DNA of 49,170 nt, counting the filler, from Jimgerdemannia flammicorona (lineage: Eukaryota): the NCBI GenBank assembly GCA_003990765.1. It is 2 parts of 2 records of this genome, joined end to end, with 100 filler letters (N's around TTAATTAATTAA, not from the genome) between each part and the next. Parts side by side here need not be neighbours in the genome. Positions count along the whole stretch, not along the records: positions 24,636 to 49,170 come from RBNJ01000965.1; 1 more part is not named here. The stretch is one strand, 5' to 3'. The position numbers and the translations under genes were made by a program. The notes beneath the pieces are model-generated. The model saw only the letters and a list, made by a program, of their open reading frames with translations, was not told the DNA's origin and searched no databases. Below, piece by piece: positions 17,639 to 46,191 of the stretch; positions within the stretch are counted from its first letter, which is position 1, and each line of letters begins with the position of its first letter.

Positions 17639-17677
<39 letters not shown>

Positions 17678-24724: not shown

Positions 24725-26067
24725 TATAATGTGCCAGCTCAATGGAGGCAAATTACAAGGTTGGGAGTTGATGTAGTTTGGCTTGAGCCCCCAGTTACTT
24801 TGTCAAAAAGCAACAAAATGTTCTTGGTGTTTAGCGGTATAATAGTCAAGATCTGGATACTGTGCAAGCGGTTTCCTTTTTGGGATAGTTCTCTGGGTGT
24901 AGCGGCGATTTGTGTGTAAATGGACTTCCTTCTTGGGTCAACTGGGAATGGTATAATTTGTGTGGCATGAGCAGTTTCCTTCTTGAGTGGCGGGTGATTT
25001 CTGTGTAGCGCGACGATCTTGTGCGCGATGGTCTGGCAATTTAGCGGTTCTTCTTATGTGATTTCTGCATGACGATCTCTGTATAGTGCGATGGGTTCCT
25101 TATGTGGGACATTCTGATAATTTCGGCGGATAACTCGATTTGGCTCACTGGGAATTGTATGGCGTGGGTTCTGGAAATAATGCTGGCAGTAGATATCTCA
25201 ATAACTCGGGCTCACTGGGAACAACAAATAACTCGGACGGCGCAGATTCTTCCTGAATCAGCTTCGACTGGGAATACTATTCGGATGGCATGGATTCTTC
25301 TGAATTGGGCTCTTCTGGGAATGCGGATAACTTGAAAATGGTGGATGATGCGGATTTGGCAGGCTTCTTGAAAACGGCGGCTTAACTGGGAATTAACTCG
25401 GATGGCGCAGATTCTTCCTGAATCAGTGGAATTCTAACTGGGAAATGGTGGTGAAGTTCTTTCTTGAACTTGGGCAGCAAACTTCAGGCTTATCTGGCAA
25501 GCGAACCAATAGTTCCAAAGGCGGCAAAGTTCTTCCTTGAACTTGGCAGCAAATCTTCAAGCTTTGTATTGGAAAGTGGACCGGAGTGGAAGAGAAGAGA
25601 ACCAAGCTCACAACTTCTTGGCGGTGGCTCGTTGGCAGGCATATCTCTTAAGTATTGCAATCCTTCCTGGATCAAGTGGCTTTTGGCAGGCATTTCTCCT
25701 AAGTGTACCAGACAATTGACTTTTGCTTTGGTTTGTATTCAACTTTCGAACTGAGGTTTTTATTCACTCTCGCCTCTGGGGTAATTTATACAAGTTGGTT
25801 GCTATCTGGTTACTATGTGGCTAACTATAGATCTGCTTCTTATGGCAGGTGTACAGAGTCTGTACGGTGTACAGGACCTGTACAGTGTACAGAGTCTGTA
25901 TGGTGTACAGAGTCTGTACAGGTAAACAGACCCTTTCTGGTATGTCTGGCTATTTATACAGTTTTCCGCAGCAAGAGTTGCTGGTTACTAAGCTGAGTGT
26001 TCATGTCATCTTGTTTGCGTCATCTGGTATAAGATATGATTCGGGTGGTACATGTTGACTCATTACA
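24725..26067 (-). repeat. 3' LTR of element A
   Basis: TATAAT(decayed TGTAAT)...CATTACA; direct repeat of 33663-35005; minus-strand TATA at ~25790 with AATAAA ~25 nt downstream. Confidence 0.95.
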
Positions 26068-26111
26068 TCAGCCCCCACTGAAGAGTAGTCTGTCTCAGAC
26101 TATTCTTCAGT
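26068..26111 (-). promoter_or_regulatory. Polypurine tract and adjacent 16-bp stem-loop of element A
   Basis: Minus strand GTGGGGGCTGA abuts the LTR; stem ACTGAAGAGTAGTCTG (26077-26092), loop TCT, CAGACTATTCTTCAGT (26096-26111), one mismatch. Confidence 0.8.
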
Positions 26112-26144
26112 CATCATCCCAATAAGCATAGGCTGCTTCTGCAT

Positions 26145-26621
26145 CTATACCTGTCTATTATCTTTATTGTCTGTACTGGGGTTACTCCATTCTAGGGGCT
26201 CTTCTTCTTCTTCAGAGAATAGGATTTCGACAGAGTTGATGATGCTCAGATAAGTAACAGGGTTCATTCTTTGAATATCATTCAGGGAGAATTGTGCCTG
26301 TGTCAGGGCTGTGACATTTTGTTTATAAATGGTGTATAGTCTGTCTGCGGCAGTAGTGTCTCTTCTGGTCAGACCTGTAGTGTTTCTGATATAGGTTTGT
26401 TCTGGGGCTGGGAGGTTCTGTAACTGTTCACCGATTGCATAATAGGCCTGCAGTTGGTGGACTTGTAGTAGGCATCTGGCCAAGGTGAGATTTTCTTGAT
26501 GAGCTTGGATCCTTTGAAGGGGGCTTCTATTGGCTTGGCCGAATTGGGGTAGAGGAACAGGTAGGGCTTGGAAGGAGCTGAGGACCAATGTCTGGAGGCG
26601 CTGATCAATTCTTTGGCTCAT
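26145..26621 (-). CDS. ORF3 of element A: 158-aa protein of unknown function downstream of integrase
   Basis: Open frame MSQRIDQRL...QAYYAIGEQL...AADRLYTIY...; its ATG (26621-26619) overlaps the true pol stop (ATGA). Homologous to ORF3 of element B; acidic C-terminal tail; no obvious TM segment. Confidence 0.8.
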   Translation of the reverse strand: MSQRIDQRLQTLVLSSFQALPVPLPQFGQANRSPLQRIQAHQENLTLARCLLQVHQLQAYYAIGEQLQNLPAPEQTYIRNTTGLTRRDTTAADRLYTIYKQNVTALTQAQFSLNDIQRMNPVTYLSIINSVEILFSEEEEEPLEWSNPSTDNKDNRQV

Positions 26622-29600
26622 GGTGTGGAGGGGAAATATAGTTTGAGGTGATTGATGTGTACTGGTGTTCTCAGGGTTCATCTATCCATGCTTCTTAAAT
26701 AGATGCTGGTTCCTTTGATGTTGTGTACAAGGTAAGGTCCTTCCCATTTCGGTTCCAGTTTGGCGGCAAAGTTTGTCTCAATCATGCTTCTCCAGACTAG
26801 GACTTGATCTCCAATCTTGATCTCCTGATCTTTCTGTTTTTGGTTATAATACTTCTTTTGTCTTTCCTGGGCTTTGATAATCTGTCCTTGGGCTTGATTT
26901 TGTAACTGTTCTGCCTTGTTGAGGAGGTCTCCAAGATTCTCATGGTCAGCAGTTCTGGTTTCCTTGGCAAACATTATTTCGAATGGCTTTTGTTTGGTGG
27001 ATGTAGCAGGGGTATTTCGAATTTCCTATAGGATCTCAGGTAAGCAGAGGTCCCAATTAGTAGGGTTGACTCGGGCAAGTCCTTTCTTGATGGTCTGGTT
27101 CATTCTTTCTGTCATGCCATTGGTCTGGGGGTGGTATGATGTGGTCCTTTTGAGGTGGATCTTATGAATTCGGACATAACTTGTGATTATGTTGTTGATG
27201 AACTCTGTGCCTCGGTCAGAGATGAGTTCTTCTGGGGGTCCATATCTGAGTGTGAGCCCATGGAGGAGGCCCACAATGGTTAAGGCATCTGCGATTTCCA
27301 TTGGGAAAGCCTCGGGCCACTTGGTCAGATGTTCTACAAATACAAGGATATATTTGTTTCTTCTTGGTGTAACTGGTAGAGGTCCAATTACATCTACTCC
27401 CCATCTTTGAAAGATGTGAGTGGGTGGGGGAATCGGTTGCAGAGGGGCTTGATAGTTCTTCTTCTCTTGGTACTTCTGGCAGGTGTCACATTTCTGAATA
27501 ATGTCCCGAACTTGAGTTCTGAGGTGGGGCCAATGTTGATATTGTTTTCAAATTCTGTCTTCTATGCTTGTCCATCCTTGGTAGGCTTTCTGATGTTCTC
27601 TTTGGATAAGATCTTCTTGTGCTTTGATGGCCTGAGGAGCTTCCTTTAGGGTGTGGTTCCTTGGGACACCCTTCCTCTGATTCATTAGGGCTGGTGGGAA
27701 AGTACATCAACATTGTTGTGGGCTTTCCCTACTTTGTGAATGATGGTGATTTTGTAATCCTAAAGGATAAGGATCCAGCAGGCTAGAATTCCGGCAGGTT
27801 CCTTGTGGTTGAATAGCCATTTGAGGGCTACATGGTCTGTGATCAGGGTGAACCTTTTTCCGATGAGGTAATGCTTGAACATGGTGACCGCCCATATGAC
27901 TGCAAGGCATTCCAGTTTGGTGCTACCATAGTTCATCTGCTGCTGATTGGTAGCCCTGCTTGCATAAGCTATCACATAGTGCTGTTGATCAGGTCCTTCT
28001 TGGGCTAGAACTGCTCCGAGGCCATCTTTGGAAGCATCTGTATACAAGATGAATGGCTTCTGCAGATTGGGGCGCACAAGGATTGGTGCTGTAGTCATGC
28101 AGTTCTTGAGTTCTCTGAAGGCTTTTTCCTGTGATTCTGTCCACTTGAATGTCATTCCTTTCTTGAGGAGGATTCGGATTGGGGCAGCGATTTGGGCAAA
28201 ATCCTTGATGAACCTTCTGTAGTAAGATACTAGCATCAGGAATGATAGTGTTTCTTTTGGAGTCTTGGATACTGGCCAATTATTGATCTTCTCAGTTTTC
28301 TTTGGGTCTGCATGAGTTCCTTCTTTTGAAACCACAAATCCTAGGAATTCAAGTTTCTGTTTTTCAAAGTAGCATTTCTTTGCATTCAGTCTCAAGTGAT
28401 TCTTACGGGTGAGCTTGAAAAATTCCTCTAGGTGGCGCAGGTGTTCTTCGAAATTTGCTGAATAGATGTTGGAATCATCCATGTATACAATCAGATAGTG
28501 GTGGATCAAGGGGGCATAGACTGAATTCATCATCCTCTGGAAGGTGGGGGGTGTATTGCAAAGTCCAAAGGGCATTCAGAGGTATTCAAACAGTTTTCCT
28601 AGAGCAAGGAAAGCTGTCTTTTGAATGTCCTTAGGGTCCATGGAGATCTCATGGAATCCTGCAAAGAGGTCCATACTGCTGAAGTATCTGGTATCTTGTA
28701 ACTGGTCCAAAAGGTCATCGATTCTGGGCAAAGGATAAGCATCCTTTTCAGTGACTGAGTTGAGTTTTCTGTAATCCACACAGAGTCTCCATCCTCCTTT
28801 CTTTGGTACAATAAGTATAGGGCTGGCCCAGGGGCTAGTAGAGGGTCGGATGACTCCATTGTCTAAGAGTTCTTGGATGTGCTCCTTTTCGAATGTTTTT
28901 AAGTGATGGGGTATTTTATAGGGTTTCTGCCGGATGGGTGTTGCACTTTCTGTATTTATGTTGTGGTGATATGATGGGTTGTATGGCAGGTTGCCATAAT
29001 CGGTAGTGAAGATATCTTGATATTTGTTGAGAAGTTTTACTAATTGTTGCTGTTGTTGAGGTGTCAATTCTTCTCCAATGTTGGTGGAAGGCTTCACTGT
29101 CTCCTGGGTCGCAGAGGGGCCTTTCCTTTCTTCTGGGACCTTTTGCTGTTTCCTGATAGGTTTAGTTCATAAACTTCCCTATGAGTTCGGTTGAGAAAAG
29201 GCACCAGATGTCCTATGATGGTTCCTTTTGGCAAGATGATGGTCTCCCAACTTTGGTTGATTCCTTGGGAGTGTACTGGGTTCATCTTGTCAGGGAATGT
29301 GTGTCCCTCTATGTCTAGGTGTGGGATGTCTTCCTTGGGTTCAAAGAAAAGGTTCCTGGGGTCGGGTGGTGCAAATATTTCGAAGGTAGTTTGTTCTCCA
29401 GGCTCCAGGATGAGATTCTTGTGCAGTCTGACTGGTTGGCGGTATACTTGCTGGGGTATATTCCTCTTGAGGTGGTTGACTTGAAGGAGATGTACCTCTT
29501 TTCTGTCTGAACTTCCAAATCCTTCAGCTTGTCTTGTCCCTTTGGTTAGTCCAGAGACTTCCTGTAACTGTGGGGTCTTGACCTTCATGAAGACTGCTTG

Positions 29601-32600
29601 GGCAATCTTCTGTCCTCTAATGATTCAGTGCCATTCTGCACTGCTGTTGTGTAGGATAACCTTGATTTCGCCTGTATATCCAGGGTCAATAGTTCCTCCT
29701 TCTACAGTTATCTCTTGTCTGGCAAGTCCAGACCTTGAGGTCAGTTGAATATAAGCTCCCTGGGGTAGCTGCATGGCTAATCCTGTTCTGACCATGAAGG
29801 TTTTTCCTGGCTTGATAGATTCATCCTCCAGGCTGTGAAGATCATATCCTATATCCTCTGGGTGGGCTTTGGTCGGGGGTTTGGCCTTGGGGTGCAGCAG
29901 GGCATACTGAGCAATATCCTTGCTGAGTTCGGACTTCCCTAAGGCTGAAGCTCCACTAGCAGAAAGTCTCCAGGCCCTAAGGTTGAGGTGTGGCCATCTG
30001 GCTCCAGTGGAAGGGTCCCGGAGGTAATTGATTCCCCTCCTTCCTGTAGGGTCAAGGGCTTCCATGAAGTTGGTGGCATCTTCTGCCCATCCTTGGTGGG
30101 TTGCATGTCTGATAAGAGCTAGGATGTCTTCTCCTAAATTGTAGATCTTGAGAATTCTTTTTCCAGGCTTCTTGGTCTGGCTTTTTCGAATCTGGCTTTT
30201 TCGGATCTAGCTTCGGTTATCTCCTTTCTTCAGGGTGTGTACTGCAACATCATGACTGAGGTGAATCTTCTGATGTCTGCAGTCTCAACAATCAGGGTAT
30301 CTTCCATGGTTGCAATATCCCATTGCCCGGAAATGATATTCCCAGCTATTTATCTCTTGTTGTCTTGGGAATCAGTACCCATCTTGATCATAGGTTGGGG
30401 GAAGGGTAGACAAGGAATATATGTCTGTTCGGGTGAAGAAGCCTTGTCCCCTAAATCGACTTTGTAACCTTGTGGTGACTTCTTGAAAGGTGGTGGATTG
30501 TGCAAGAGTAGTTGGGGGTTCTGGCCTCTGGGGTCTCTGTCTTTCTTGTTGGTCCAACAGATGGCACTGATAGCAGTAGTCTCAGGGAGAGTGGAAGACC
30601 ATTTGATGTAGACATCTTCCTAGCCAGAAAGCTTTCTCCTGGTGGGTTTCTTTCTTGGGGATGATAGTGATGGTACTGGGTCCTTCCTCTGTATTCCAGG
30701 GGTCATTGTCTTCAGGTGGTGTCCACTGAGAGTCATCCCAGGGGATGAGTTCGGGGACTTCTTCTTCATCAGGTGCTTCTTGTTCAGGAGCTTCTTGGTC
30801 AGAAGTTTCTTCTTCCTCAGATGATTCTTGACCCCAAATTGCTTGTACTTCTGCAGCTTTGGTCGCAGGTATTTCTGGAATATGTCTGCATTTCTTCTTC
30901 TTTCTTCTGCATTCTGGGCAGGCTGCACCAGGCGATTTCCTTTTTCCCATGATCTTGGAGGAGTGCTCGGGACACTTGTGTCTCTTGAGGCATGTGGGGC
31001 ATCCTTTGGCTTCTCCTGCAATGGCTCCAATAGTGATGGGGATGGTGTTCTTAGCCCACACATTGTCTTCTGGTCTATCATCCACCAGGTTAATTCGTGG
31101 ATTGAGTCTGGGATCATTTCCATCTTCGGATTCTTCTTCTTCTTCTGTAGTAGACTCCTCACTGCTGGCATACTCTTCTTAAATGGTGACCTTCTTCTTC
31201 TTCTTTGATTGCTTATAGCTGGTCACTTTAACTCTATACTTCTTGTCTCGGTAGTCAAACTTGAGTACTTGTTGACCGATATCAACAACTGCATTCATTT
31301 CCTTCATCCAGTTAGTGCCAAGAATCATGTCATAGGTGACAGCTTCGGTGACAACAGCTTTGGGGATAGAGAACTGAATGTGTCCAAGAGAGATGGTGAT
31401 ATTTCGTACTTCTCCAAGGGGTTGAGTTCAGGCTCCATCTGCTACTATGATGCTGAGGTTGGATGGTCCATCAATGGGCCATTGGAGGGTGTCCAGGAAT
31501 CGTTTGGCAATGACACAGACAGCTGCTCCTGTGTCTATGAGGATTTTCGCTTTTTGTCCTCCGATATCTCCATGTAAGTAGGTGCTGACATGTCTTTCAG
31601 CTGCTTGAACTGGGATGGAAGCTGGTTCTTGCTGTGGGATTGGAACTCGGCCAGTACTAGACCTGGTGGTTCTTAGCAATTTGTTTCAGACTCCAGCCGG
31701 TGTCAATTGCAAGAACTGCAGGAGAGGAACTTCCATCTTGGCTTCTTGAATCTTCTGCCAGGCTTCATTGTAAATATCCCTAGGTATAGTCTTTGGGGTG
31801 TACTTCTTTTTAGGCTTTGGAGCAACAGGTTCTCGTTCTTCTTGTTCCATTTCTTCATCTTCTGGTGGCAACTCGTTTGTCTCAGGCACAAAAGGTGAGG
31901 GAGTTCGGGGGGGTATTTCAACTTGTTCCTCCTCATGTTCCTCATCTTCCTCTTGAATGATTCTTCTGCTGATGTTCCTGGATGGTCTGCCCACAGGTCT
32001 CTTTCTTTTTTCTGCTGGGTAGACTGTCTTTGGGTAGTAACCTTTGTAGGATACAAGTCTAGGTCACTGTAGTCTTCACTATTGCTTGCTTCCTTGAAAT
32101 CTTCAACAGGATGGGCTTCGGTCTTCTTGTACTGGGTGTCATTCCTTCGGTTTGGTGGTTCTGAGTCCCTTTGGTCACTTCTTTTGTTATCACATTCAGT
32201 GGCATAGTGTCCAAATTGTCCACAGTGGAAGCATTGGACTTGGGTTCTGTCTTGGGCAGGGTACCTTCTTTCTTCTTGCTGGTAATTCCTGTTATCTCTT
32301 GGTAGATAACCTTGGCTCCTCTGTGATGGGTATCCTCTGTTGTTTTGGTAATCCCGATTTTCACATGTGGTGAGTTTTTCAATCTGCCCAACCAATCAGT
32401 CTAACTTGGAGCTGAGGTCTTGAATTTCGCTTCTGTCCTTCTTTCCTTCCTTGGCTGGCCTTCTTTCTTCAGATCTTTCTTGTCCTTGAAGGAGTCCTTG
32501 TAGGGCTTTGACCAGGATATCTTCTTTATCTTCCTTCTTGTCATGGTCACTCCAGGTGGTTCCTTGCCTGACATCAAAGAATTCTTGGGCTGCATCTACT

Positions 32601-33094
32601 TGTTCTTCAGACCTTCTGATGCCTAGGGTGCGGACATGCTGGGCAATATTCGGAGGAATCTCATTCATGAAGGTCATTGGACCTATGATGTCTTGGTTGG
32701 TGGCATTGAACCCGGCAGAGTGCATCCTCTTCTGGATTCTTGTAAAGAAGGCTCTGGGTGATTCTCCAAGATTCATCTTTATTCCCATGATGAATTCCTG
32801 GGCCTTGTGGCGGGTTTCATTTCCTGCATACTTTTCTATAAGCCAGTAGACCATGGCCTGATATTCTAGCTTGTAGGAGACTGCTGCTTGTATCTGTCTT
32901 GCTAGTTCGGAATCTGGGTTGTTTGCTGTTCGATGGAAAATCCCCCTGGCTGGTTCTCTGAGCTGAGCTTTGTAGATGGCGATTTTCCTTTTGTCTGAGA
33001 GATTCCTCAGGGCTGTGATTCCTTCGATTCCATCAAGGAATTCTCTGGGGTCTTCCTCTGGGTATCCTGCAAAGATTGGCAATGAGGTGGCCAT
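26618..33094 (-). pseudogene. gag-pol polyprotein of element A (in-frame stops, a few frameshifts; frame probably extends upstream to ~33600)
   Basis: Gag LPIFAG..EDP..FL and CFHCGQFGHYATEC; protease ILIDTGA; RT WRLCVDYRKLN, YPLPRIDDLL, MPFGL, YMDD; RNase H LYTDAS; integrase ISDRGTEF, YHPQTNGMTERMN, WEGPY, PVHINHLKLY. No chromodomain seen. Confidence 0.95.
29500..29920 (-). pseudogene. dUTPase domain within element A pol, between protease and RT
   Basis: Motifs GYDL (I), SRSGLA (II), GTIDPGYTGEI (III), KIAQAV (IV), RQAEGFGSS (V). Confidence 0.92.
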
Positions 33095-33642
33095 TTCTTC
33101 GTCACTTTCTTCTGATTCTGGTTCAAATTCGGATTCTGATTCAGATTCACTTTCTGAACTGTCACTAGAGACCAGGGTGCTTGGGTATCTTGAAGATGGT
33201 GTTCTGGTCCTTGGATGAGGTAGAGTAGGCCTAGGTATCCTTGTAGGAGCTACTTCTGGTTCTGCAAGAGGTTGTGGTAGGGGTTCTATTGGTGAAATTG
33301 GTGAGACTGGTGTGGGGTATCTGGCTGTAAGGTGTTGGGTCCGGATAATAAAGTCTTCTAGTTCTTGTGCAAGTTCTCCAAAATTTCCAGCAGGGCTGCC
33401 TGTATTGTCTGATTGATCTGGTTAATCTGGTTGAGGATTTCGGACTGTACTGCCTCCTGCTTCTGGTTGAGATCCTTCTGATGCTGGGTAGTTGGCAAGT
33501 CTTGAGGTGATTACTTCTCTTCCTGTCCAGATGCTAGTGATGACTGGTTCTCCTGTAGTGGCAGAGATTGGTATTGTATCAAATGTATCCAGTTTGACTG
33601 TGAGTTCTTGTGAGCTGAAAAGTCACGTCGATTTTGAAATCT

Positions 33643-33660
33643 TTCCCAGTTGAGCCCCCA
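33643..33660 (-). promoter_or_regulatory. Primer binding site of element A, tRNA-Pro-like
   Basis: Minus strand TGGGGGCTCAACTGGGAA, 2 nt from the 5' LTR; 14/18 identical to the canonical tRNA-Pro PBS TGGGGGCTCGTCCGGGAT, two mismatches explicable by CpG decay. Confidence 0.75.
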
Positions 33661-33662
33661 AA

Positions 33663-35005
33663 TGTAATGTGCCAGCTCAATGGAGGCAAATTACAAGGTT
33701 GGGGGTTGATGTAGTTTGGCTTGAGCCCCCAGTTACTTTGTCAAAAAGCAACAAAATGTTCTTGGTGTTTAGCAGTATAATAGTCAAGATCTGGATACTG
33801 TGTGAGTGGTTTCCTTTTTGGGATGGTTCTCTGGGTATAGCGGCGATTTGTATGTGAATGGACTTCTTTCTTGGGTCAACTGGGAATGGTATAATTTGTG
33901 TGGTGTGAGCAGTTTCCTTCTTGAGTGGCGGGTGATTTCTGTGTAGCGCGATGATCTTGTGCGCGATGGTCTGGCAATTTAGCAGTTCTCTTTATGCGAT
34001 TTCTGCATGACGATCTCTGTGTAGCACGACAGGTTCCTTATGCAGGACATTCTGATAATTTCGGCAGATAACTCAATTTGGCTCACTGGAAATTGTATGG
34101 CATGGGTTCTGGAAATAATGCTGGCAGTGGATATCTCAATAACTTGGGCTCACTGGGAACAATGAATAACTTGGACGGCGCAGATTCTTCCTGAATCGGC
34201 TTCGACTGGGAATACTATTTGGATGGCGCGGATTCTTCTGAATCGGGCTCTTCTGGGAATGCAGATAACTCAAAAATGACGGACGATGTGGATTTGGCGG
34301 GCTTCTTGAAAACGGCAGCTTAACTGGGAATTAACTCGGATGGCGCAGATTCTTCCTGAATCGGCGGGATTCTAACTGGGAAATGGTGGCAAAGTTCTTC
34401 CTTGAACTTGGGCGGCAAACTTCAGGCTTATCTGGCAAGCAAACCAATAGTTCCAAAGGCGGTGAAGTTCTTCCTTGAACTTGGCAGCAAATCTTCAAGC
34501 TTTGTATCGGAAAGTGGACCGGAGTGGAAGAGAAGAGAACTAAGCTCACAACTTCTTGGCAGTGGCTCGTTGGCAGGCATATCTCCTAAGTGTTGCAATT
34601 CTTCCTAGATCAAGTGGCTTTTGGCAGGTGTTTCTCCTAAGTGTACCAGACAATTGACTTTTGCTTTGATTTGTATTCAACTTTCGGACTGAGGTTTTTA
34701 TTCACTCTCGCCTCTGGGGTAATTTATACAAGTTGGTTGCTATCTGGTTACTATGTGGCTAACTATAGATCTGCTTCTTATAGCAGATGTACAGAGTCTG
34801 TACGGTGTACAGGACCTGTATAGTGTACAGAGTCTGTATGGTGTACAGAGTCTGTATAGGTAAACAGACCCTTTCTGGTATATCTGGCTATTTATACAGT
34901 TTTCCGCAGCAAGAGTTGCTGGTTACTAAGCTGAGTGTTCACGTCATCTTATTCATATCATCTGGTTTAAGATATGATTCAGGTGGTACATCTTGACTTG
35001 TCACA
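33663..35005 (-). repeat. 5' LTR of element A
   Basis: TGTAATG...GTCACA; same length (1343 bp) as the other LTR. Confidence 0.95.
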
Positions 35006-35870
35006 CTATTATATGGGGCATGCTGCAACAAAACCAGACAAAGTGAACATTTGATATTACTTGATTATTTATTTTTGTCACTGCTTTACTTATAACTTTT
35101 TAATTATTTAATATTTATTATATAATTTGATTAGAGTAAGTAAACCAAAAGTATAACCTAATGTTCTCTATTTTTATACTTCTCTTAAAGTCTTCACTAA
35201 TATTAATAGAACTTTGATATATTATAATTAGGTAGAACATAATTTTTTCAGAAAACATTTTTTCATTTTCATACTATAACTGAATTATTATTAGTAAAAT
35301 ATAAAAATCTGGTATATTTCTTTCATTCAGAACCATCTTAAAGAAAAAAACCATTGTTTTTTATTTTGACTAAAATAATCTATATACTTAACATAACCTT
35401 ATAAAAAAAATATATATAAGTATTATAATATAGCAGATGCTAAGATGGGCAAGTATGTCGGATCTCTTTATCTTGAATTCTTGTCTTCTTGACTCCCAGA
35501 GTCAGTAGTTCCTTGAGGCTAAATGTGTTTAAAGAGGTAATCCTGAAGGTCCTTTTATTGATATACTTGTTCTTTTTCTAACACTTTCGATCTGAGGTTT
35601 ATTCATTCCAAGATACTGGGTTATTTATATAAGTTTGCTGGCTATGAGAGAGTGGCTAAGTAATAAATGAGTCATTTGGACTTTGTTGAAATATTTGGAC
35701 AATGTCTAAATGCTATACTAAATTGGGACATTCAATTTGGATAATGTCTAAGAATTTAGACAATGTCGAAGTTGAGGACTACTAACTATAAGGCTGTACT
35801 ACTTTGGGACTGGGTGTGATCAAGTATCTATTCCCTATTTCCTTCTTCTAATTTTGGCTGTATCATCACA

Positions 35871-35914
35871 ACTTCCTCCTGAATAGATGGTCTCATCCCT
35901 GAGGCATCTATTCA
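35871..35914 (-). promoter_or_regulatory. Polypurine tract and adjacent stem-loop of element B
   Basis: Minus strand AGGAGGAAGT abuts the LTR; TGAATAGATG (35880-35889) pairs with CATCTATTCA (35905-35914), with inner CTCA/TGAG pairing around a 4-nt loop. Confidence 0.78.
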
Positions 35915-36369
35915 AACTTCCAGGCTTCAACTGTCTGTATGGTCTTATACTGTGCAATTTACTGCATGACTGTTTCCCAATGATGTCTTCTCACTTTCTT
36001 GAAGTCAGTGGGGGTTACTCCTCTCAGGTGGTCTATTGCTGGTTCATCTTCTTGGAATAACTTATGGATCCTTTTAGCAATAGTGATCTGTGAGTGGGAG
36101 AGTTGACACTCAGCAATCCAGTCCTCTTTGGTCTTTGCTGGATCTTAATTGAGCACCTGTCCAAGCTTGAAGTACTCTTGGAATTCTGCCCAATATTGAT
36201 AGGCTCTAAAGTGCAAGATCTAAGAGAGATGAGTCTGCACAATACTCTGAATATCCTCATAGTATGCCTCTATGGTTGGAGGCTCAGTAGTGTGCCATTG
36301 TCATTCGATGGCTCTTTGGGCAGTACTAGTGATCTTGAGTGCCATTGCGGTGCTTTGATTATTGGCCAT
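35908..36369 (-). pseudogene. ORF3 of element B (153 codons, four internal stops), missed by the ORF track
   Basis: MANNQSTAMALKITSTAQRAIE*QWH...QEYFKLGQVLN*DPAKTKEDWIAECQLSHSQITIAKRIHKLFQEDEPAIDHLRGVTPTDFKKVRRHHWETVMQ*...WKFE. All four stops revert to R or Q codons by one T>C; the ATG overlaps the pol stop by 11 nt. Confidence 0.8.
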
Positions 36370-39300
36370 GGTACTTCTTGAGTCAGTTTTGATAAATGGT
36401 GGTAGGGATTATTGTGTCTGAGGGCTTTCATAGCCAGAAAGTAGTCCCTTTTATATCTTGTACCAGATAAGGTCCTTCCTACTTGGGCTCCAGTTTTTGT
36501 GACCAAGAAGCTTCTACCATGTTCTGATATACTAGGACTTCATCTCCTATCTTGATAATCTCCAGGGGCTTGTGGGTTTTTTCTGTATTGTTCTGTTGTA
36601 GTGCCTGCACCTTGATTATGTAATCCTCTACCTTTTTTCTTATTTGATGCAATCTCTGTATCTCTATGTCCACATACTTCCAGATTGCGTCATTAGTTGC
36701 TGACAAACTTCCACCAGAACCTTCTTCACCGAATAGCATTTCTTGTGGTATAAAATGAGTGCTTTGTGATTGTATATCCCACAGAGTGGATAATGCAATT
36801 GGTAGATAGTGGTCCCAGTTTCCATATTTGTCACAGATCTTGGCAATGATATTCTTGAGGGTCTTGTTGGTTCTTTCTACTTGTCTGTTTCCTTGTAGGT
36901 GATAGGCTGTGGTCTTGATGTGTTGGATCTTGTATTTTTTGTAAAGAACCTCATGGAACTGGTTGACAAATTCTGTTCCTCTGTCTGTAGTAACTTGTTT
37001 TGGGGTCTTGAATCAGCAGATGATTTCTCTATGAAAGAAATCGGCAATTGACTATATATTGGCTTCCTTGAGGGGTCTAGTCTCTACTCATTTTGTAAAT
37101 AGATCCACTATTACAATGACATATCGGTTGCCCATCAATCAAGGGTAGAGGACCAATTACATCTATTGCAATGTGAGTAAATAGTATTGGTTCGATGTCT
37201 GCTGATCCAGGGGCTTGATCCCATTGGTCTTGTTTCTATTTCTGACATTTGTCACAGGTCCTGACAAATTGTCTGATATCTTCTTCCATTCCAGGCCACC
37301 ACATGGTTCTTCTCACTTTGTCATATATATTTATTCCTCCTATATGACCCTGTTCATGTACTTCTTTTATTACTTGATTCTTCTGGTACTCAGGGATAAC
37401 TAATTGTTGTCCTTTCTTGAGTATTTCTCCATCAGTTTTGAATTGTTTCTATGTCTGATTAATAATTGTTTTTATCCATTCTTCCAGATGCAGGGGCATC
37501 TTTTGCTGCCCCAGGTAGCTGATGATTCCATAGTACAGCTCCTTATTCATGGTGATTTTGTAGGGGTGGGGTCCTTCAGGATATCCATGAGAGGGCGTCA
37601 GCATTAGTATTGGTTCTTCCAGGGCGGTGAGTAATTGTGGCATTGTATGCTTGCAGCTTCATGATCCATCGAGCATAGATTTCTTTGGGCTTACTGGTGG
37701 TGAGCAACTAGGTGAGTGCTGAGTGGTCTGTCTGGATAGTGAAGTGTCTTCCAGCTAGGTAGTAGTGGAACTTCTCTACAGTCCAGATGACTGCAAGGCA
37801 TTCCAGCTTATAAGACTCATAGGACTGCTCTGCCCCGCAAGTACCTTGGCTGAGATATACTATCACATATTCGGCACCATTTTTCTTTTGTGCAAGGATA
37901 GCTCTAAGTCCCATTGCACTGGTGTCTGTTTGCAGAATAAACTCCTGAGTCCAGTCAGGTCTTCTCAAGATTGGGGCCTGGGTCAATCTGGTCTTGAGCT
38001 CATCAAAGGCTAGTTGCTGCTGCGAACTTAACTTCTTTTCTGAACAGATCATAGATAGGGCTGACAATGTGGGAGAATCTTCTAATAAATCTTCTATAGT
38101 AGGATGCAAGTCCCATGAAGGCTCAGGCTTCCATGGTGCTAGTAGGTACTGGGTATGCTGCCACTGCCTTGATCTTTGTGGGGTCTCTGTATGTTCCTTT
38201 ACAGTTGATAATGTGTCTGAGGTATGCGATCTCTTCTTCTCTGAACTTGCATTTCTTGGGCTTGATGTAGAGGCCATGTTTACAAAGCCTTCTGAGGATT
38301 TCCTCAATATGTTCCAAGTGCTCCTTGGCTGTTCAGCTGAAGATGATCACATCATCTACATATACCATCATCCATTTTTCCATAACATCTCTGAAGATGC
38401 TGTTCATCATTCGCTGGAAGCTTGCTGGTACATTGCACATTCCAAAGGGCATGTGGAGATAGACATAGGTTCCATCAGGGGTGATGAAGGCTGATCTTTT
38501 GCTGGCTTCTGGTGTAAGACCGATTTGGTAGAATCCTGAGAACAGATCCAAGGTGGTGTAGAATTGTGATTCATTCTCAAGCATAATGAGAATATCGCCA
38601 ATGTTTGGCAATGGTTATCTGTCCTTCTCTGTGACCTTGTTGAGTCTTCTATAGTCTGTGCAGAGTCTTGATGTAAATTCTCCTGGTTGGCTTCCTTTCT
38701 TTGGTGCAAGGACAACAGGGGAGGACCAAGGGCTGCTGATTTCTTCAATGATACCAGATTCCTCCATTTCCTTGATCTCTGTCTTGAGCCATTCTCTGTA
38801 TGCTGGTGGAATGGGGCGGGCCTTCTGATAGATTGGCTTTGCATCTCCAGTATTGACATCATGATAATACAAGGATTTCTTGGTCTTAATGTCCTTGAAA
38901 TCCATAGCTAGTACATCCTCGAATGTATGCAAGAGGCTCTGCAATTCTTCCCTAAGGGGAAAGTTTCCTCCAATTGTATAGGTGTATTTGTCTTGGCTTT
39001 CCTCCTTCTTGTGCTCCAATTCAGTGATCTTAGTTGCTGCGAGGACTCCTCTTCCTGTAGAGCCGAATCCAGCTCTTCCTTATTGAGTTTGTCTGATGTT
39101 TGCAACCTCCTTGATTCTTGGATTAAGGATAGGTAGAATGAGCATTTGTACTAGCCGATCCTTCTTCCTTACTTCAAATGGGATTATTGGGTTGTGGTTC
39201 CTGGTGAGGAGAAGGATTTCTCCAGTATAATCTGAATTGATGACTCCTCTTTCTATAGATATTTCGCTTTTCACCAGGCTACTCCTTGTCTTGAGGATTC

Positions 39301-41515
39301 TGACATGGTTTGGTGGGATGGTTACTTCAATTTCTGTTCCTAGAATGGTAGTGATCTGTGGTTCGAGTATTGTGTATGTAGTAGTATATAGGTCTAGTTC
39401 AGCTGCATTCTCTGACTTGTACTGTGGCATGACTGCATCAGAGTGAATCCTTCATATCTTGACTGTGATATCTTCATCCTCATCATCACTGTCATCCAAT
39501 AACTTTGGTGGTCTGTCTTCTAGTTCCTCCTAGTTCTTCTTTGGCTTGTTGGTGATCTTCTTCACCTCAATGATACAAGAGTAGCAGCAATCCAAGTGCT
39601 GGGCACAGTACATTCTTTCACCATGGGGGCACCTTCCTAGTAGGGCATATCTATCTGCGATTCTTATATACCATTCTTCCTCTGTCAATTGCTTGCCTTT
39701 TCCTTTCTTTGTAGTAACCATATAGGCTTCTTCTTCTTGGTCTTCCTTCATCTCAGGGCAGACTCCTTTGTGGACATTGATGGGAATTCTGATCTTCTTT
39801 CCCCAGTAGACAATCTGCATCTTCTGTGCACTGAGGTCAATCATTGCCTTGGCTTTATGAAGCCATTGATTGCCAATGAGGATATCATAGTTAGTTGCAT
39901 TGGTGACGATAACATCTATAGGGATAGTGGCCTCTCTGAATTTGATTGGTACATCTTGGATCTTTCCCAAGGGTGTTGCTCATGTTCCATCAGCTGTGAC
40001 AAATACCAGTTTGGTGGTTTCTTCTATCTCCCAACCTAGGTGGTCTACTGCTTTCTTGGTGATGAGACATCCTCCTGCTTCCATATCAATAATGGCTTCA
40101 AAGACTCGATCCTTGATCTGGCAGGTAGCATAGGCTGATGTTTTCCGATTATCTTCACTCTCTTCATCTGAATCTTCTTGTGCATTATTGGCTTCAATTA
40201 TTTTCCAACCTTGGTCTTTGCCAATATCTGAGATTCCTGTCCTCATTTATTGTCTGAAGGTTGGAATTTCTACTAGTTGGCCGAAGGTTGCATTGACCTT
40301 TTGATCCTTGAGGTCCTTGAAGATATCATACTTGAAGGTCTTGCTCTTGCATAATTTCTACTCCTTCTTCCCTTCACTTGATGGGGTGGTGTTTCTGATG
40401 ATATCTTCTATCGCTCGTTCAAGTTCAGCATCTTGTTCCAGCTCCATATCTTGATCAGCTTCGCTCTGGTAGTTCTCTTTTTTGATGACTGTTTCTGGTT
40501 GTCTTGTTTGTATCTGGGCCTTCTTAGGAGGTCTGCCTGGAGGTCTTTTGTAGGGACTAGATTGGACATCCTTCTTGCTTGAGGTGGCAGGGTAAGCTTC
40601 TCATTCCTCCCTCTCTTCCTCAGATTCTCCAATCTCCTCAAAGGTGATAGTGTTTGCCTGTTCATAGTTTCTGGTTACATTGCTTGGATTGGCCTTTTGC
40701 TTGGTTTCTGTTATGCATTCGGAGGCATAGTGGCCTTCTTCTCTACAGTTGTAGCATGTTATTGATCATCTTGTATTTGTAGCAGTAAACTTCTGTACTG
40801 GCTTCTTCTTGAACTCTTTGACTACATCACTGAGGTGTGCAGTCATTTCTGTGAACTGTTTGGCCAGTTCCTCCATTGGGTCAATCCTTCTCTGTTCTTG
40901 TGGTTGTCGTTGTATATTTCGGTTAACTATGGTAGCTGGGACTGTATTGGTGACCCTTGGTGCTTGTTCAATTTTTACTCCTGTTTTTCTTTCCATTGTA
41001 TGGTCTTGAGGGTGTCTAGCAGTCCAGTATCTTTGGACATATGTAACTTTCTGGCCCAGGTCCAGTGCCGTTGAGGTAGATCAGATAGCTAAAGTGATTT
41101 CTTGATAAATGCCTTTCATGAAGGTATTCTCAGCCACTTGGTCTTGAACTGCATCGGAGTAGTCAGCAAGGACTATTTGATGTCAGATTCTTGTATAGAA
41201 TATATTTGAGTCTTCAGACATTCCTTGGCAGATAGTATTCAGTTGATCCTTGAGTGCTTGTTTGATTTCATCTGTGTAATAGATTGCTTGGAGCCAGGCC
41301 TTGAAAGCTAGGAGTCTTGCTGGATCATCATTTCCCACAATATTGGCTGCAGTGAATGCAGTTCTCGCTGGGCCTCTGAGGCTTACAGGGAGTAGGGCTA
41401 CTTGTTATGCTGTACTTAAGGTCCTTATAGCAGCATACTGCTTGAAATCATCGATGAAGGTAATGATTGATTCATTGGAGGTATATCCATGGAATACAGG
41501 TGGTCTCATATCCAT
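36359..41515 (-). pseudogene. gag-pol polyprotein of element B
   Basis: Gag RPPVFHG and CYNCREEGHYASEC; protease AIIDMEA (decayed DTGA); RT RLCTDYRRLN, MPFGM, YVDD; RNase H LQTDTS; integrase TDRGTEF, GQVERTN, EGPY, LKKYHGQ*. Confidence 0.95.
39050..39450 (-). pseudogene. dUTPase domain within element B pol, between protease and RT
   Basis: AAELDLY, KTRSSL, GVINSDYTGEI, DRLVQML, GRAGFGSTG. Confidence 0.9.
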
Positions 41516-41593
41516 TTTATCTAATTGTGTTATGTGGGTTCTTATTGTGGTTATTCATTGTTCAGCTTGAAAGTGAGAGATTTATCTTGAATT

Positions 41594-41611
41594 ACCAGCT
41601 AATGGACACCA
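41594..41611 (-). promoter_or_regulatory. Putative PBS of element B (tRNA not assigned)
   Basis: TGGTGTCCATTAGCTGGT begins 3 nt from the 5' LTR. Confidence 0.55.
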
Positions 41612-42065
41612 AGTTGTAATATAGCAGATGCTAAGATGGGCAAATATGTTGGATTTCTTTATCTTGAATTCTTGTCTTCTTGACTCCCAGAGTCAGTAGT
41701 TCCTTGAGGCCAAATATGTTTAAAGAGGTAATCCTGAAGGTCCTTTTATCAGTATACTTGTTCTTTTTCTAACACTTTCGATCTGAGGTTTATTCACTCC
41801 AAGATACTGGGTTATTTATATAAGTTTACTAGCTATGAGAGGGTGGCTAAGTAATAAATGAGTCATTTGGACTTTGTTGAAATATTTGGACAATGTCTAA
41901 ATGCTATACTAAATCAGAATGTTCGATTTGGATAATATCTAAGAATTTAGACAATGTCGAAGTCGAGGACTGCTAACTATAAGACTGTACTACTTTGGGA
42001 CTGGGTGTGATCAAGTATCTATTCTCTATTTCCTTCTTCCAATTTTGGCTGTACCATCACAGTAT

Positions 42066-43830
42066 ATAAAAGAAAAATAAATATAAATTTATAACAAAAA
42101 ATATAATCAATAAACTCTAAGAGAGAAACAAAGAATTATTAAATTAAATCAAACAATTAAAAGTATCATTACAAGTTAAGTAGTTGAATAATAAAGAAAT
42201 TAAATAAGAGATAATCAAGTATTTAGTAGATAGATATATTACCATAATCCTGATTTAGTAGTAGTTGATAAAATTGCCCAAATTAATAATGAAGAATATT
42301 GACCAAGGCTTTGTGAGAATTATCCTACTGAAAGTTCTCAGCAAGGATATATTTGCTTGTTTTATCAATATATTCAATATTATGATAATTAATTTAAACA
42401 CTATAATAAAATAAATAATGCTAAAAAAGATATTTTCTCTACTCTACAATATTTAGATTTAGAGAAAAGTAAGAAATTTATTGAAAAATGATTAGAAGAG
42501 GATAAGATAAAAAAGGAACCATTTGAAGAAGGTTGAAGAGAAGAATTCAAAAATAAATATGACCTCTATAATATTTCCTTAGAAGACATAGTAAAAGGTA
42601 TTATTGAATGAACTGCAAAAGTTAAAATTGAGCATAAAAGCTTCAAGAAAACTACTGAGGAACTTTTATTAAATTATTCTGAATTAATAGAAGATGATAT
42701 AGAAAATGAAAGAGTTTATTAGTTAGAAGGATAACTATAAGAATTATTAGAGAAAATCAAAAACAGTAAATTAGATAAACTCAATAAAGTTGTTATAAGA
42801 ATTATAAAGTAGATACTAAAACTCACTTTATATTTTTTACTGAAATTAGTAAGAAATAGAATAATAAAAAGGAAATATCTTTAAAAGAGAAAATTAGAGA
42901 TAAGTCAAAATTATTGAAAAAAGAATATGAGAAAAATGCTATTCAGAAAGCTAAAATTAAGGAACTTCAAGTAGAATTATATAAGCAAAAAAAATTATTA
43001 GCAAAAGAGTATAAAAAAAACAAAACACAAGAGATAAAAAAAGAGGACTTATAAAGATAATTATATTTATTCAAAAAAGCTTTATCTAAAATACCAAGTA
43101 AGTTCAAGATATTAGAAATAAAAATAAAAAGTAAATTTTTACAATTATCAGAAAAAGTTAAGTCTCAAACTTGAGAAATTATTGCTTGGATAGAAATTAA
43201 GCTAAGTAATAATAAAAGAGTTAATTTATACAATCTTGGAATTAGAAGAGTAGAATAAAGAGAGTATTGTGATTTTTGCTCTTATTTCAAAAACAGTAAA
43301 AATTAATCTCTCTGTCAAATTAGAACTCAAAGCAAAGTAGTTGATAAAATAATTAAAAATAACTATGCATATGAAAACTATAAAGAAAAGTTTTTAAATG
43401 GTAAATTACTCAAATGCAAAAGATATAGAAGATTAAAAACTAAACTGAATTTTGACTTTTGGAGTAATAGATATATTTACTATTATATTAGATATAATAA
43501 AAATATAGAGAAAAAAGAACTTCCACTTTTGCTCAATGAAGAGATAAGTTAATCAGCATTTTATGAAAGATAGATAAATGCTTTATGAGAGAAAAAAGAT
43601 CAATTAGCAGTAGAAATAAATACTCATCTCAAAGCCTTAGAAGTTACTGAAGACTAGTATAAAAGACAAAAGTAAGACTTATTAGATAAAATAAAGGAGT
43701 TAGAAGCTAAAGTAGTAAGATTAAAAAAGCTAACTCCTCAAGAATTAATCAAGGAAATTAATGAGTTAAAAGCCCAATTAGAGCAATGAAATAGCTAATT
43801 CATAACTCAAATCAAGGTTAAAAAGTAATC
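42066..43830 (+). pseudogene. Cluster of ~4 closely packed, apparently intronless, very AT-rich Lys/Glu-rich decayed ORFs resembling Mollicutes-related endobacterial genes
   Basis: Frames such as AKKDIFSTLQYLDLEKSKKFIEK(TGA)LEEDKIKKEPFEEG(TGA)REEFKNK..GIIE(TGA)TAKVK and LKKLTPQELIKEINELKAQLEQ..FITQIKVKK*. Origin is inferred from style and recalled similarity, not from a search. Confidence 0.55.
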
Positions 43831-43869
43831 TTGATTAAAAGTAAAAAAGTAAATATTTTTATTTATTAA

Positions 43870-45610
43870 TAGTATAAATTAATTTAGAATAAGTAATATC
43901 TTTGAATTCATTTTAGACAAAGGGGTAAATATTGTGATAAAGATATTCCTGGCATTTCAATTTCATAGAAGAAAGTACTAGTACTAGAAATGACAAGGTC
44001 TTGATTATTTCTATAACTTTTAAAATCTCAGATTTACTACTTTTTAATAGTTTGAATTCTTAGAATAGACCATTGGTAATTTCTTATACTTTGATAATAC
44101 ATATCTGGATTCACTCTGATGAAAAGAAAATATTGAAACTTTTGTATACCAGATAGCTTCTTAAAGTATATTTTGAAACTACTCACAATGTTAAAATATT
44201 ATAAACCATCTCTGCTATTATAATACTGTACTTTATTTAATCTGGCAATACTAGACTTTTTTATTATATGTATCAATGATATGATCTATATAGTTTTGTG
44301 ATAAAGCCTTTTAATTAGACCAAAACTACCATCATATTTAAATTTGGTATAGTCTGGAACCATGAAGTTTAATTTAATACTTTCATAATACCTATAAATT
44401 ACCAAATACAAATAAAACTAAAGAGTGATATTATTCTTGTTTTGTCTGCCTGCATTATCACAAGTGATTTTTAAGTATCCTTCATCTCAGTTCAATTGCT
44501 TAATTCTATTGAAAACTAGACTAAGTGTACCATTCAGACTCTTTCTGAGAAGTTTATTCTTATTAAGAATATAATTAATTTACTTACAGACCACTTCATC
44601 TTGAATTCCAAATAAATGTACTTTACAAGTACTAAGATAATACACTTTGCCAATCTGTTGATCAGAATAAGACACATGGGCATTTTGGGCTCAGTCATAA
44701 CTATAATAAGTAGCTGTATTAATACTGCAGAATGATACCTTACCTTTTAGTATAGAATAATTCTGATCAATAAGTTTCCTTTGTTCTTCTGCCAATTTGA
44801 TATTTCTGTTATAATAGTTTTGTTCTAATTTGGCTTTGGTAAGATGCTCTTTATATCTCTTTAATAAGTCTTAAGTCTCTTCTTCTTTATAAGCTTTAAA
44901 TTGTAAATAATTCTATAAATATTAATAGGTATTGTATAAATTGGTTAAGAACTTATAATTTGGATATGCAGAGTTAGCTGATGCTACAATTTGCGAAATA
45001 TATCATATTTAAGTATGTGCAGAGTACTATCTTCTTTTAGACCAGCTAAAAAATCATAATAAATAGATTTGTAGCTCATTTCTATAGGTAAAAAGATAAT
45101 TAATTAAGTGACTCAATTAATATTTCTAACTAGGCTAGATAATTTATAGACTTTAGTAAAATTCAAAAGAAAATTCTTCACTACAGTAGTCATATTTATA
45201 TATATTAATGACCATCTTGGTTTTTTACTATAGCATTCTTTTTACATTACTATAGAGCTATGAGAGAAGACCATTTTTCAGCAAATGATTTCTGACATTT
45301 TCAAAATGGACATAGTTAATTCCCAGCATATTCAAATAGGTCTTCTGGCAAAGAAGTATATTGTAATCTTAGTAGTATAATGTTCTTTTATTAACATAGT
45401 TCTTATTCTTAAGACAGCAACTAATACTTATAGATCCACCATCTATAAACTTGAGTTGAGTCATTAAAAAGATGTCTTGTTCTAACTTGAAAAGAGCCTG
45501 AAAAGCTTCATGTATCTCAGCAAATACTTTCTTGAGAACTTTGGAAGAGTAACCACAACTACAGCCTACTTTTAAAAACTCTATTACTTTTTCATACTTA
45601 GTCATCATAA
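43870..45610 (-). pseudogene. Sola-like (DUF7869-type) DDE transposase pseudogene
   Basis: Minus-strand motifs GCSCG, YD*AQN..QQIGKVYY, TCDNAGRQNKNN (44434-44466), FMVPDYTKFKYDGSFGLIK (decayed GHTK..D..FG.IK). Confidence 0.75.
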
Positions 45611-45985
45611 CTATATAATATATTTTATATTCAGTTTGTTTAGTTTTATAAAATTTCTCCTATATCATACAAATTAATCAATCTATATATTCACTCTTCT
45701 TTATATGAACTTTCTTAATTCCACTGTTAATACAACAAATGCTAAAGTATAAAACTGCCCTTGATCTCTCTCCAATCCTTATATATAATTTTCAGCTATC
45801 TAGCTACAGCATTAATAATTACTTGTATGATTTTACCTTGTTTATATTTCTCATTATTGCTATATTTTAACTTAAGCACCTCATCTATTGATATAGCTTC
45901 AACTGTAGCTGCCTTTGCCTCCAACTTCTTTCATTTCTTTTTACCTGATTTCCCAATAGTAAGTAAGTATAAAGTGAAAATACAG

Positions 45986-45991
<6 letters not shown>

Positions 45992-46071
<80 letters not shown>
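45992..46071 (+). repeat. 80-nt poly(A) run
   Basis: Seen directly; followed immediately by TGTAAG, a possible LTR start. Confidence 0.9.
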
Positions 46072-46073
<2 letters not shown>

Positions 46074-46191
46074 TAAGCCAAGTACAAACCTTGGTTTAGC
46101 AAGGCTTGAAAGTTAACATCTTTACTCTTGAACTCAAAAATGAACCATTTTGGCCTTGTACCAGTAGAAGTAAATTTGGTTTCAGCAAAAA

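Follow-up and report, generated by a model that had tools for sequence, protein, structure and literature searches.

A decayed mobile element in the genome of the fungus Jimgerdemannia flammicorona whose relatives read TGA as tryptophan, possibly of endobacterial origin

We analyzed a stretch of 49,170 nucleotides, filler included, from the genome of the fungus Jimgerdemannia flammicorona (GenBank assembly GCA_003990765.1), hereafter the window; it joins parts of two records, of which RBNJ01000965.1 supplies positions 24,636 to 49,170. An AT-rich block of this window carries the remains of two adjoining open reading frames (ORFs), termed ORF2 and ORF3, and of a transposase gene of the DUF7869 family. 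Together with a separated segment at 35006-35422, these are homologous to a family of mobile elements that use TGA as a tryptophan codon. A sequence-only reading had proposed that the block is DNA of a Mollicutes-related endobacterium (MRE) fossilized in the fungal nuclear genome.

Pseudogenes in the AT-rich block

The GC content at positions 42001-44000 is 0.22-0.23, against 0.42-0.58 in the genes and long terminal repeat (LTR) retrotransposons of the window, and both purine skews of the block are +0.21. It had been described as an AT-rich run of closely packed, same-strand ORFs with coiled coils and Cys motifs, and this is an accurate picture of it, with ORF2 and ORF3 abutting each other. 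The ORF2 pseudogene (42084..43205, plus strand), delineated from read-through frames and homologs, encodes an N-terminal domain followed by a coiled coil, and is disrupted by two frameshifts, one near 42800 and the other immediately ahead of its stop (TAA, 43203-43205). A protein search recovered 12 homologs (P0020-P0031), to which are added the ORF2 genes of the metagenomic loci L040, L043, L045, L048, and L064 described below. The read-through product (P0001) matches P0020 with E = 3e-40, P0020 being 85% identical over the matched stretch; a word-indexed protein search at near length returned no match for P0001. The C-terminal IIAWIEIK pointed out earlier is indeed the end of ORF2, and the corresponding ends in relatives read ARIEIKTN/K before the stop.

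The ORF3 pseudogene (43212..43852, plus strand) follows after about 6 nt, as judged by eye, the corresponding gap in relatives being 1-13 nt. It was delineated from family matches, alignments, a codon table, and a structural model, and it encodes zinc-ribbon-like Cys pairs, a long coiled coil, and a basic tail. Its first codon, ATA at 43212, aligns with the start Met of the family and was formerly ATG; a frameshift lies near 43265, and the stop is TAA at 43850-43852. The motif FITQIKVKK, which had been taken for a second C-terminus, is thus not the end of ORF3, since the text runs on for 8 codons to this stop; relatives end in KKWPWLKxRK. The read-through product (P0002) matches family proteins with E = 5e-53 to 1e-13. 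Four Cys pairs are invariant or nearly so across the family, and 5 of these 8 conserved Cys codons are now TAT or TAC in the window. The model shows a beta-rich domain with the four Cys pairs, two long helices (residues 113-219), and the basic tail (pLDDT 75, pTM 0.40), and had no match to a PDB structure at E <= 0.001. Neither ORF2 nor ORF3 belongs to a Pfam, NCBIfam, or PHROGs family above threshold, Pfam giving only sub-threshold coiled-coil and zinc-ribbon noise. We infer that both proteins may have an accessory role in the element.

Tail to tail with ORF3 lies the pseudogene of a DDE-type transposase (about 43856..45800, minus strand), identified by Pfam, tblastn, and nucleotide comparisons. 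Residues 419-573 of its read-through frame match DUF7869 (PF25273) with 41.8 bits against a cut-off of 26 (E = 1.1e-10), and by tblastn it is 60-67% identical, by segment, to the transposases of L045 and L040 and to P0032. Its frame is not open, 28 of the 602 codons being stops and a frameshift lying near 44100. Like ORF2, ORF3, and an additional gene of relatives, ORF0 (see below), the transposase had no match in PHROGs or NCBIfam. The window copy is dead, without present function.

Relatives and their genetic code

Relatives were found in soil metagenome contigs of the Joint Genome Institute (JGI), with a median GC content of 0.31. They comprise at least 64 distinct loci (among 595 pattern matches), at 31-57% protein identity to the window ORF3; all locus counts below, and all statements that something is nearest or that none was found, apply among the matches listed. 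The protein search gave 15 strong ORF3 homologs without a name and a single weak named one, from Diversispora eburnea. In named fungal proteomes no intact ORF3 was found, the sole named match having E = 3e-4 over 17% of the query, and viral contigs gave no match to ORF3. As far as the searches reach, this family of ORF2-ORF3 with a transposase is undescribed.

Eight or nine loci have a DUF7869 transposase gene 5' of ORF2 and ORF3 in the same orientation, and the in-frame "stops" of these transposase-bearing loci are exclusively TGA, at Trp sites. A regular-expression tally of one conserved Trp site over the 64 loci gave 47 matches, with 31 TGA, 12 TGG, 1 TAA, no TAG, and 3 other codons; L003, for example, has TGA at three tallied Trp sites. 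At three conserved Gln sites, Gln is encoded in 54 of 55, 48 of 48, and 44 of 48 cases, with no stop in any of the 151 matches. Among ORFs free of TAA and TAG, the TGA:TGG totals are 154:53 for ORF3, 194:25 for ORF2, and 17:7 for the transposase, and at least one in-frame TGA is present in 62 of 63 ORF3, 44 of 45 ORF2, and 6 of 8 transposase ORFs. These genes are under purifying selection with TGA in place: omega is 0.098 over 501 codons between the L040 and L045 transposases, 0.09-0.16 in ORF3 pairs, and 0.37 in ORF2. Further, A and G are balanced alike in the Trp codons (17 TGA to 7 TGG) and the Gln codons (79 CAA to 34 CAG) of the L040 and L045 transposases. Random deamination cannot yield such a pattern. 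The family is translated where TGA stands for Trp, and we take these observations as strong evidence that it lives in a bacterium with such a code. The database proteins P0004-P0018 and P0032-P0036 cannot be counted as standard-code copies, since they may be gene calls made under code 4; P0011, for example, is from a contig of 1128 bp, as long as L003. Screening of the window and of 26 of the 64 relative loci found no tRNA, and hence no element-borne suppressor there.

Two other decodings can be set aside. A ciliate-type code, in which each of the three stops is a sense codon, disagrees with the relatives, which never use TAA or TAG in this way. A host with TGA as Trp disagrees with its retrotransposons, in which TGA is found at an Arg site and Trp sites have TGG.

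Fungal mitochondria also read TGA as Trp, and the frames in the window can be read through with TAA and TAG as Gln and TGA as Trp. The block could on these grounds be a mitochondrial insert, or derive from a eukaryote reading all three stops as sense. We regard either source as highly improbable. The absence of TAA and TAG from the Gln sites of relatives indicates that only TGA is reassigned, and the genes next to the relatives (IS630, IS1595, RmuC, MazF, HigA, HigB) are not mitochondrial. At least 64 loci as divergent as those above misfit a mitochondrial genome, and the host elements encode Trp as TGG and have TGA at an Arg site of a reverse transcriptase (RT) motif. A general Pfam scan found no mitochondrial gene in the block, mitochondrial libraries not having been searched.

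Architecture and terminus of the element

The canonical order in relatives is DUF7869 transposase, ORF2, ORF3, and a conserved terminus. This terminus is a motif of about 45 nt 3' of ORF3 that ends in 'CCCCATAT' and is 93-100% identical among 11 loci (L008, L012, L036, L037, L039, L040, L042, L045, L051, L052, and L064), though their proteins differ by half. The sequence immediately following it differs in every locus; hence the motif marks the true end of the element. The window has the motif in reverse orientation at 35006..35056 (minus strand), with 93-100% identity over 39-54 nt to those of the 11 loci. It is followed by an AT-rich tail (35057..35368) with only weak inverted matches to the loci, and then by a piece of the region upstream of ORF2 (35369..35422, plus strand). 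Within this piece, 35369-35414 has a counterpart in 10 loci, at 79-85% identity, either immediately 5' of ORF2 or immediately behind the stop codon of the transposase; these loci include L045, L037, L023, L006, L029, L025, and L022.

The piece is split from ORF2 by LTR retrotransposon B (35423..42061, minus strand), defined by its LTR pair and by RNase H-like RT domains (Pfam). As 35369-35414 and 35001-35056 both match relatives, B lies inside the element. The earlier proposal that B had inserted with a target-site duplication holds in so far as a 4-bp repeat, GTAT, read by eye, stands on both of its sides; the placement of B at the edge of the fossil does not. LTR retrotransposon A (24727..35005, minus strand), of the Ty3/Gypsy type and with a dUTPase, abuts the terminus from outside the element, its end at 35005 and a 6-bp flanking repeat both having been read by eye.

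The order in the window is reversed terminus, ORF2-ORF3, and reversed transposase. This would be the canonical order with the ORF2-ORF3 cassette inverted, with breakpoints exactly after the transposase stop and the ORF3 stop, and such an inversion fits a cassette that also exists without this transposase.

Two further observations concern the ends of relatives. At about 1459-1550 of L036 two terminus motifs stand head to head as a perfect palindrome, which could be the junction of a circle, a hairpin end, or the meeting point of two elements lying tail to tail. In L040, ORF0 (112 aa, with a basic KKKRK stretch) precedes the transposase; the ORF0 region (L040 2031-2235) recurs inverted 3' of ORF3 in L039 (2505-2711), L037 (2176-2382), and L028 (2358-2441), which suggests long terminal inverted repeats.

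Decay of the window copy and of host repeats

The two LTR retrotransposons, both of the Ty3/Gypsy type and on the minus strand according to Pfam and LTR comparison, provide a gauge of mutation in this host. Identity between the two LTRs is 93.9% in A (24727-26060 and 33665-34998), the differences amounting to 80 transitions and 2 transversions, and 94.2% in B (35423-35870 and 41614-42061; 448 bp), with 26 transitions and no transversions; neither pair shows an indel. As the two pairs combined thus differ by 106 transitions against 2 transversions, with many of the changes at CpG, the host must have a strong repeat-associated C-to-T process. The differences are nearly all C/T and G/A and free of indels, as in transition-type repeat decay. 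In the coding regions of A, which comprise RVT_1, RNase H, rve, and dUTPase domains (Pfam), TGA stands at the Arg of an RT motif and TAG at an integrase Trp; TGG is found at Trp sites in host retrotransposons.

The same spectrum characterizes the fossil. Relative to its closest living relative, the window transposase has changed by C>T or G>A at 206 sites and by the reverse transitions at 56, a 3.7:1 excess toward A+T, with 54 transversions besides, and CpG is most affected, the G after C being changed at 11 of 14 sites. In ORF3, TAA and TAG stand on conserved Gln sites and also on a near-invariant Trp, and TGA stands on Trp at the tail and elsewhere on sites that are Arg, Gln, or Lys in relatives. 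The ATA start, the Cys codons turned to Tyr, and the stops at Gln and Trp sites are together the signature of C>T/G>A decay. The claim that the stops are of the same C>T type as in the neighboring elements is thus borne out.

Repeat-targeted C-to-T hypermutation in fungi is known as repeat-induced point mutation (RIP) or as deamination of methylated CpG. Like these, the process seen here leaves copies that differ nearly only by transitions, without indels, most severely at CpG, and with premature TAA, TAG, and TGA. It is unlike them in that the element terminus escaped decay, and it is compared with them by its spectrum of changes.

Against this background the four in-frame TGA codons that had been offered as a sign of code 4 are readily located (42300-42302, 42489-42491, 42534-42536, and 42609-42611) and are not diagnostic. 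The ORF2 and ORF3 reading pieces hold 30 stops (17 TAA, 6 TAG, and 7 TGA), so that code 4 does not open the frames, 23 TAA or TAG remaining beside the 7 TGA; TAG occurs at five Trp sites and TGA at Arg and Gln sites of the same copy. The caveat of the sequence-only reading, that the TGA evidence alone is weak, was justified.

Genomic neighborhoods and phylogeny

When the ORFs flanking the relatives were read by code 4, 13 of 34 had Pfam matches, seven of them to DDE_3/HTH and the rest to IS1595, P63C, HigB, PemK, RmuC, and, weakly, AAA-ATPase_like; NCBIfam matches above cut-off were to IS630 (two), IS1595, and HigA. IS630-type transposases stand directly after ORF3 in seven loci. The flanks of L021 encode IS1595, P63C, HigB, and PemK/MazF, a flank of L015 encodes HigA, and those of L048 encode RmuC and an HU/IHF-like protein. 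In these bacterial-type flanking ORFs, TGA is commoner than TGG. L040 has flanks that encode an AAA-ATPase-like pseudogene.

In the ORF3 tree, loci with bacterial flanks are interleaved with loci bearing the DUF7869 gene or the terminus motif. L048, with its RmuC and HU-like neighbors, groups with L045 and L036 at 100/99, and the window belongs to a clade of 21 rows (100/99), six of which have bacterial flanks.

Mobile elements are abundant in MRE, and 1-8% of the non-orphan genes of these bacteria encode transposases, according to a passage of PMC4916391. The present family resembles these insertion sequences, phages, and integrative and conjugative elements in that its cassette adjoins IS630-type transposases or, in L021, IS1595 and toxin-antitoxin genes, with TGA as Trp. 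It differs in that ORF2 and ORF3 have no known family or, for ORF3, solved fold, and in being absent from the prokaryote species genomes scanned. The L040 transposase has 616 homologs at E <= 1e-5, of which the named ones are nearly all from Glomeromycotina, with a few other labels of metagenome-assembled genomes (MAGs). One such homolog, P0090, which is labeled "MAG Candidatus Moeniiplasma glomeromycotorum" and lies on a contig of 124,773 bp, aligns with 56% of the L040 transposase at 54% identity.

The DUF7869 transposases of Glomeromycotina are the closest described parallel by domain: the window pseudogene lies above the Pfam cut-off and aligns full-length with the named fungal proteins. 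The window subfamily is unlike them in having in-frame TGA at Trp sites, the ORF2-ORF3 cassette, and the conserved terminus, and Rhizophagus homologs are only about 41% identical. The name DUF7869 was not found in the literature search. Gene models P0037, P0039, P0045, and P0046, from Ambispora, Geosiphon, and Diversispora, skip a "YSYDW" segment of the transposase, which suggests that an in-frame stop lies there too, masked by predicted introns.

Origin of the window copy

Taking these findings together, we propose that a mobile element of a code-4 bacterium, probably an MRE, left a copy in a eukaryotic chromosome and that the block and 35006-35422 are what remains of it after rearrangement and decay; we put the probability of this reading at roughly 0.55. 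A composite mobile element would have resided in a bacterium with a Mycoplasma-type code, most probably an MRE of Mucoromycota fungi, and its living relatives are translatable only where TGA is Trp. One copy would have reached a chromosome of the eukaryotic host and, TGA being a stop codon there, would have been untranslatable on arrival; this copy would hold the ORF2-ORF3 cassette inverted relative to the canonical order. Transition-only, CpG-biased deamination of cytosine in the host would have turned codons for Gln, Trp, Arg, and Cys into TAA, TAG, TGA, and Tyr codons, and, later, LTR retrotransposon B would have inserted upstream of ORF2 and LTR retrotransposon A beside the terminus. Of this account, the homology, the genetic code and bacterial neighbors of the relatives, the spectrum of decay, and the insertions are observed, and the direction of transfer and the MRE as donor are inferred.

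The possibility that endobacterial DNA was instead misjoined to fungal contigs, or is a contaminant, has to be faced, since passages of PMC11423566 and PMC10507103 report MRE contigs and chimeric MRE sequences in Mucoromycota assemblies, and the window holds N runs at 24536-24579 and 24592-24635. These runs lie 10 kb from the block. The copy itself holds 58 in-frame stops and several frameshifts, its C>T/G>A excess has the same spectrum as the host LTR pairs, and a host LTR retrotransposon with a target-site repeat sits inside it, making an assembly artifact a most improbable explanation. Earlier, too, the block had been judged to be chromosomal rather than part of a contaminant contig, and the transition-only decay of the host and the interruption by a retrotransposon sustain that judgment.

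Support for a bacterial origin comes from the family: no copy written in the standard code was seen, Trp codons follow the A/G balance of Gln codons in L040 and L045, and the genes are packed as in an operon. The stops in the window do not decide between this and a nuclear origin. Among the matches listed, the transposases nearest to that of the window by transversions are those of L045 (72/1469, 4.9%) and L040 (96/1688, 5.7%). Both have TGA at 3-4 of the 5 transposase Trp sites, and all 5 window codons at these sites are reachable from the L040 or L045 codon by G>A alone. A hand count of about 15 Trp sites in the window gave no TGG, 5 TAG, 7 TGA, and 3 TAA; because G>A rates are 0.2-0.5 per site, such counts cannot separate a TGA-rich from a TGG-only ancestor.

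A number of observations weigh against a bacterial, and more specifically an MRE, source. The Trp-site counts are about equally compatible with an all-TGG and a mixed ancestor, and the TAG at five Trp sites (in ORF2, ORF3, and the transposase, the fifth identified by eye) means that the ancestor of the window copy had TGG there; among code-4 relatives, TGA occupies three of these sites in 3 of 3, 2 of 2, and 31 of 43 cases. The terminus motif of the window is undecayed and identical to the consensus of the loci, with about 29% of the G/C sites changed in the coding parts, which a single old insertion leaves unexplained. Pattern scans of 185,579 prokaryote species genomes (one per species) found no relative, and ORF2 and ORF3 had no match among named MRE proteins; the assignment to MRE consequently rests on the code, the neighbors, the habitat, and one label. 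Within the window no bacterial housekeeping gene was found, nothing but the element matches the loci, and its neighbors are eukaryotic LTR retrotransposons. The named DUF7869 transposases are almost all from Glomeromycotina and include ones on large nuclear contigs (1.19 Mb in Geosiphon and 3.1 Mb in Rhizophagus), so the transposase is eukaryote-like, and as the family is otherwise labeled almost only Glomeromycotina, the direction of transfer is unsettled. Finally, L040 (1-1750 and 6197-6373) has a complete TGA-bearing element between flanks with a GC content of 0.40-0.49 and only TGG for Trp, and, as a lead only, an ORF beside L025 is similar to a large cluster of Mucoromycota proteins; copies with TGA thus sit also in DNA that does not look bacterial.

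These observations give substance to a different history, in which the element is the fossil of a nuclear DNA transposon: the window copy would never have left the nucleus, the code-4 bacterial copies would have been acquired from the host, and the stops would reflect decay of CAA, CAG, TGG, and CGA. This would account for the Glomeromycotina labels, the DUF7869 domain of the window transposase, and the ancestral TGG. P0020 has Trp at 3 of the 4 TGA sites named in the sequence-only reading, and the host-wide transition-only decay suffices for every stop. Insertions are terminus-precise with different flanks at each locus, those of L040 having TGG only, and host to MRE is the direction of transfer reported in passages of PMC5982333 and PMC10507103. 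Yet such a history has to contend with the absence of any visible standard-code copy, given that TGA occurs in nearly all the ORF3 and ORF2 genes of the listed loci. The TGA at 3-4 of 5 Trp sites in L040 and L045, their low omega, and their Trp usage indicate long residence in a code-4 genome, before their split from the window copy. ORF2 and ORF3 lack introns and have an operon-like packing, and named fungal proteomes hold no convincing ORF3 match. The fungal labels, moreover, are weakened by the presence in some Glomeromycotina assemblies of MRE contigs annotated as fungal, as stated in a passage of PMC10507103. We therefore consider a purely nuclear history unlikely, though credible.

The undecayed terminus, the flanks of L040 and L025, and the eukaryote-like transposase keep that alternative alive and also suggest a third, which we raise as a speculation that is rather unlikely to hold: a cross-kingdom shuttle, that is, a eukaryote-type DDE transposon translatable only in a code-4 endobacterium that inserts terminus-precisely in the nucleus of the fungal host, dead on arrival. 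The window would then be an old landing and L040 a fresh one (complete, with 12 TGA, no other defect, and the terminus kept), and a mobile or invertible ORF2-ORF3 cassette and a near-invariant terminus would be its working parts.

On balance, then, transfer from an endosymbiont to its host, as first suggested for this block, is favored by a family that uses TGA as Trp under purifying selection, by its bacterial neighbors, and by one Moeniiplasma label. The empty scans of prokaryote genomes and the Glomeromycotina-labeled transposase do not bear it out.

Other features of the window

GC-rich split genes occupy positions 1-8200, with AA_permease-type pieces and an MFS transporter (Pfam). A direct repeat of 1.24 kb (22170-23412 and 46194-47424; 80.5% identity, 207 transitions, 27 transversions) brackets the whole region, including both LTR elements and the fossil, and might be the LTR pair of an older element or a different repeat present twice. 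A large inverted duplication pairs 10916-14443 with 21627-18362 at about 72% identity and has a self-complementary center at 12917-13359. A read-through frame at about 15900-16900 (plus strand) contains the motif DNATNN...HILNL, which may be hAT-transposase-like; a Pfam search of 15303-17002 found no family. Just past the 5' end of the transposase pseudogene lies an A run of about 80 nt (45990-46075), with a similar T run at 17639-17677, and the two N runs mentioned above lie about 100 nt upstream of LTR element A.

Significance

Nuclear integrations of endosymbiont or organelle DNA are well known, as in the Wolbachia inserts of insects and the nuclear copies of mitochondrial DNA (NUMTs). The present case is like these in being foreign DNA of another code and context that lies in a eukaryotic chromosome as an untranslatable, decaying pseudogene. 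It is unlike them in being a mobile element with a conserved terminus rather than a random chromosomal fragment, and in that the donor would be an MRE. MRE and their fungal hosts exchange genes, and MRE hold host-derived genes; the traffic is described mainly as host to bacterium in passages of PMC5982333 and PMC10507103. The fossil of a bacterial mobile element in the host, if true, would document the reverse. As LTR element B lies inside it, the fossil predates B, whose LTRs have since diverged by 5.8%, which would make it a dated marker.

For annotation there is a warning in that fungal gene models splice around the TGA codons of these elements. The family itself combines a eukaryote-like DUF7869 transposase, selected with TGA as Trp, with a two-gene cassette and a nearly invariant terminus, and it could reveal how transposons adjust when the genetic code changes.

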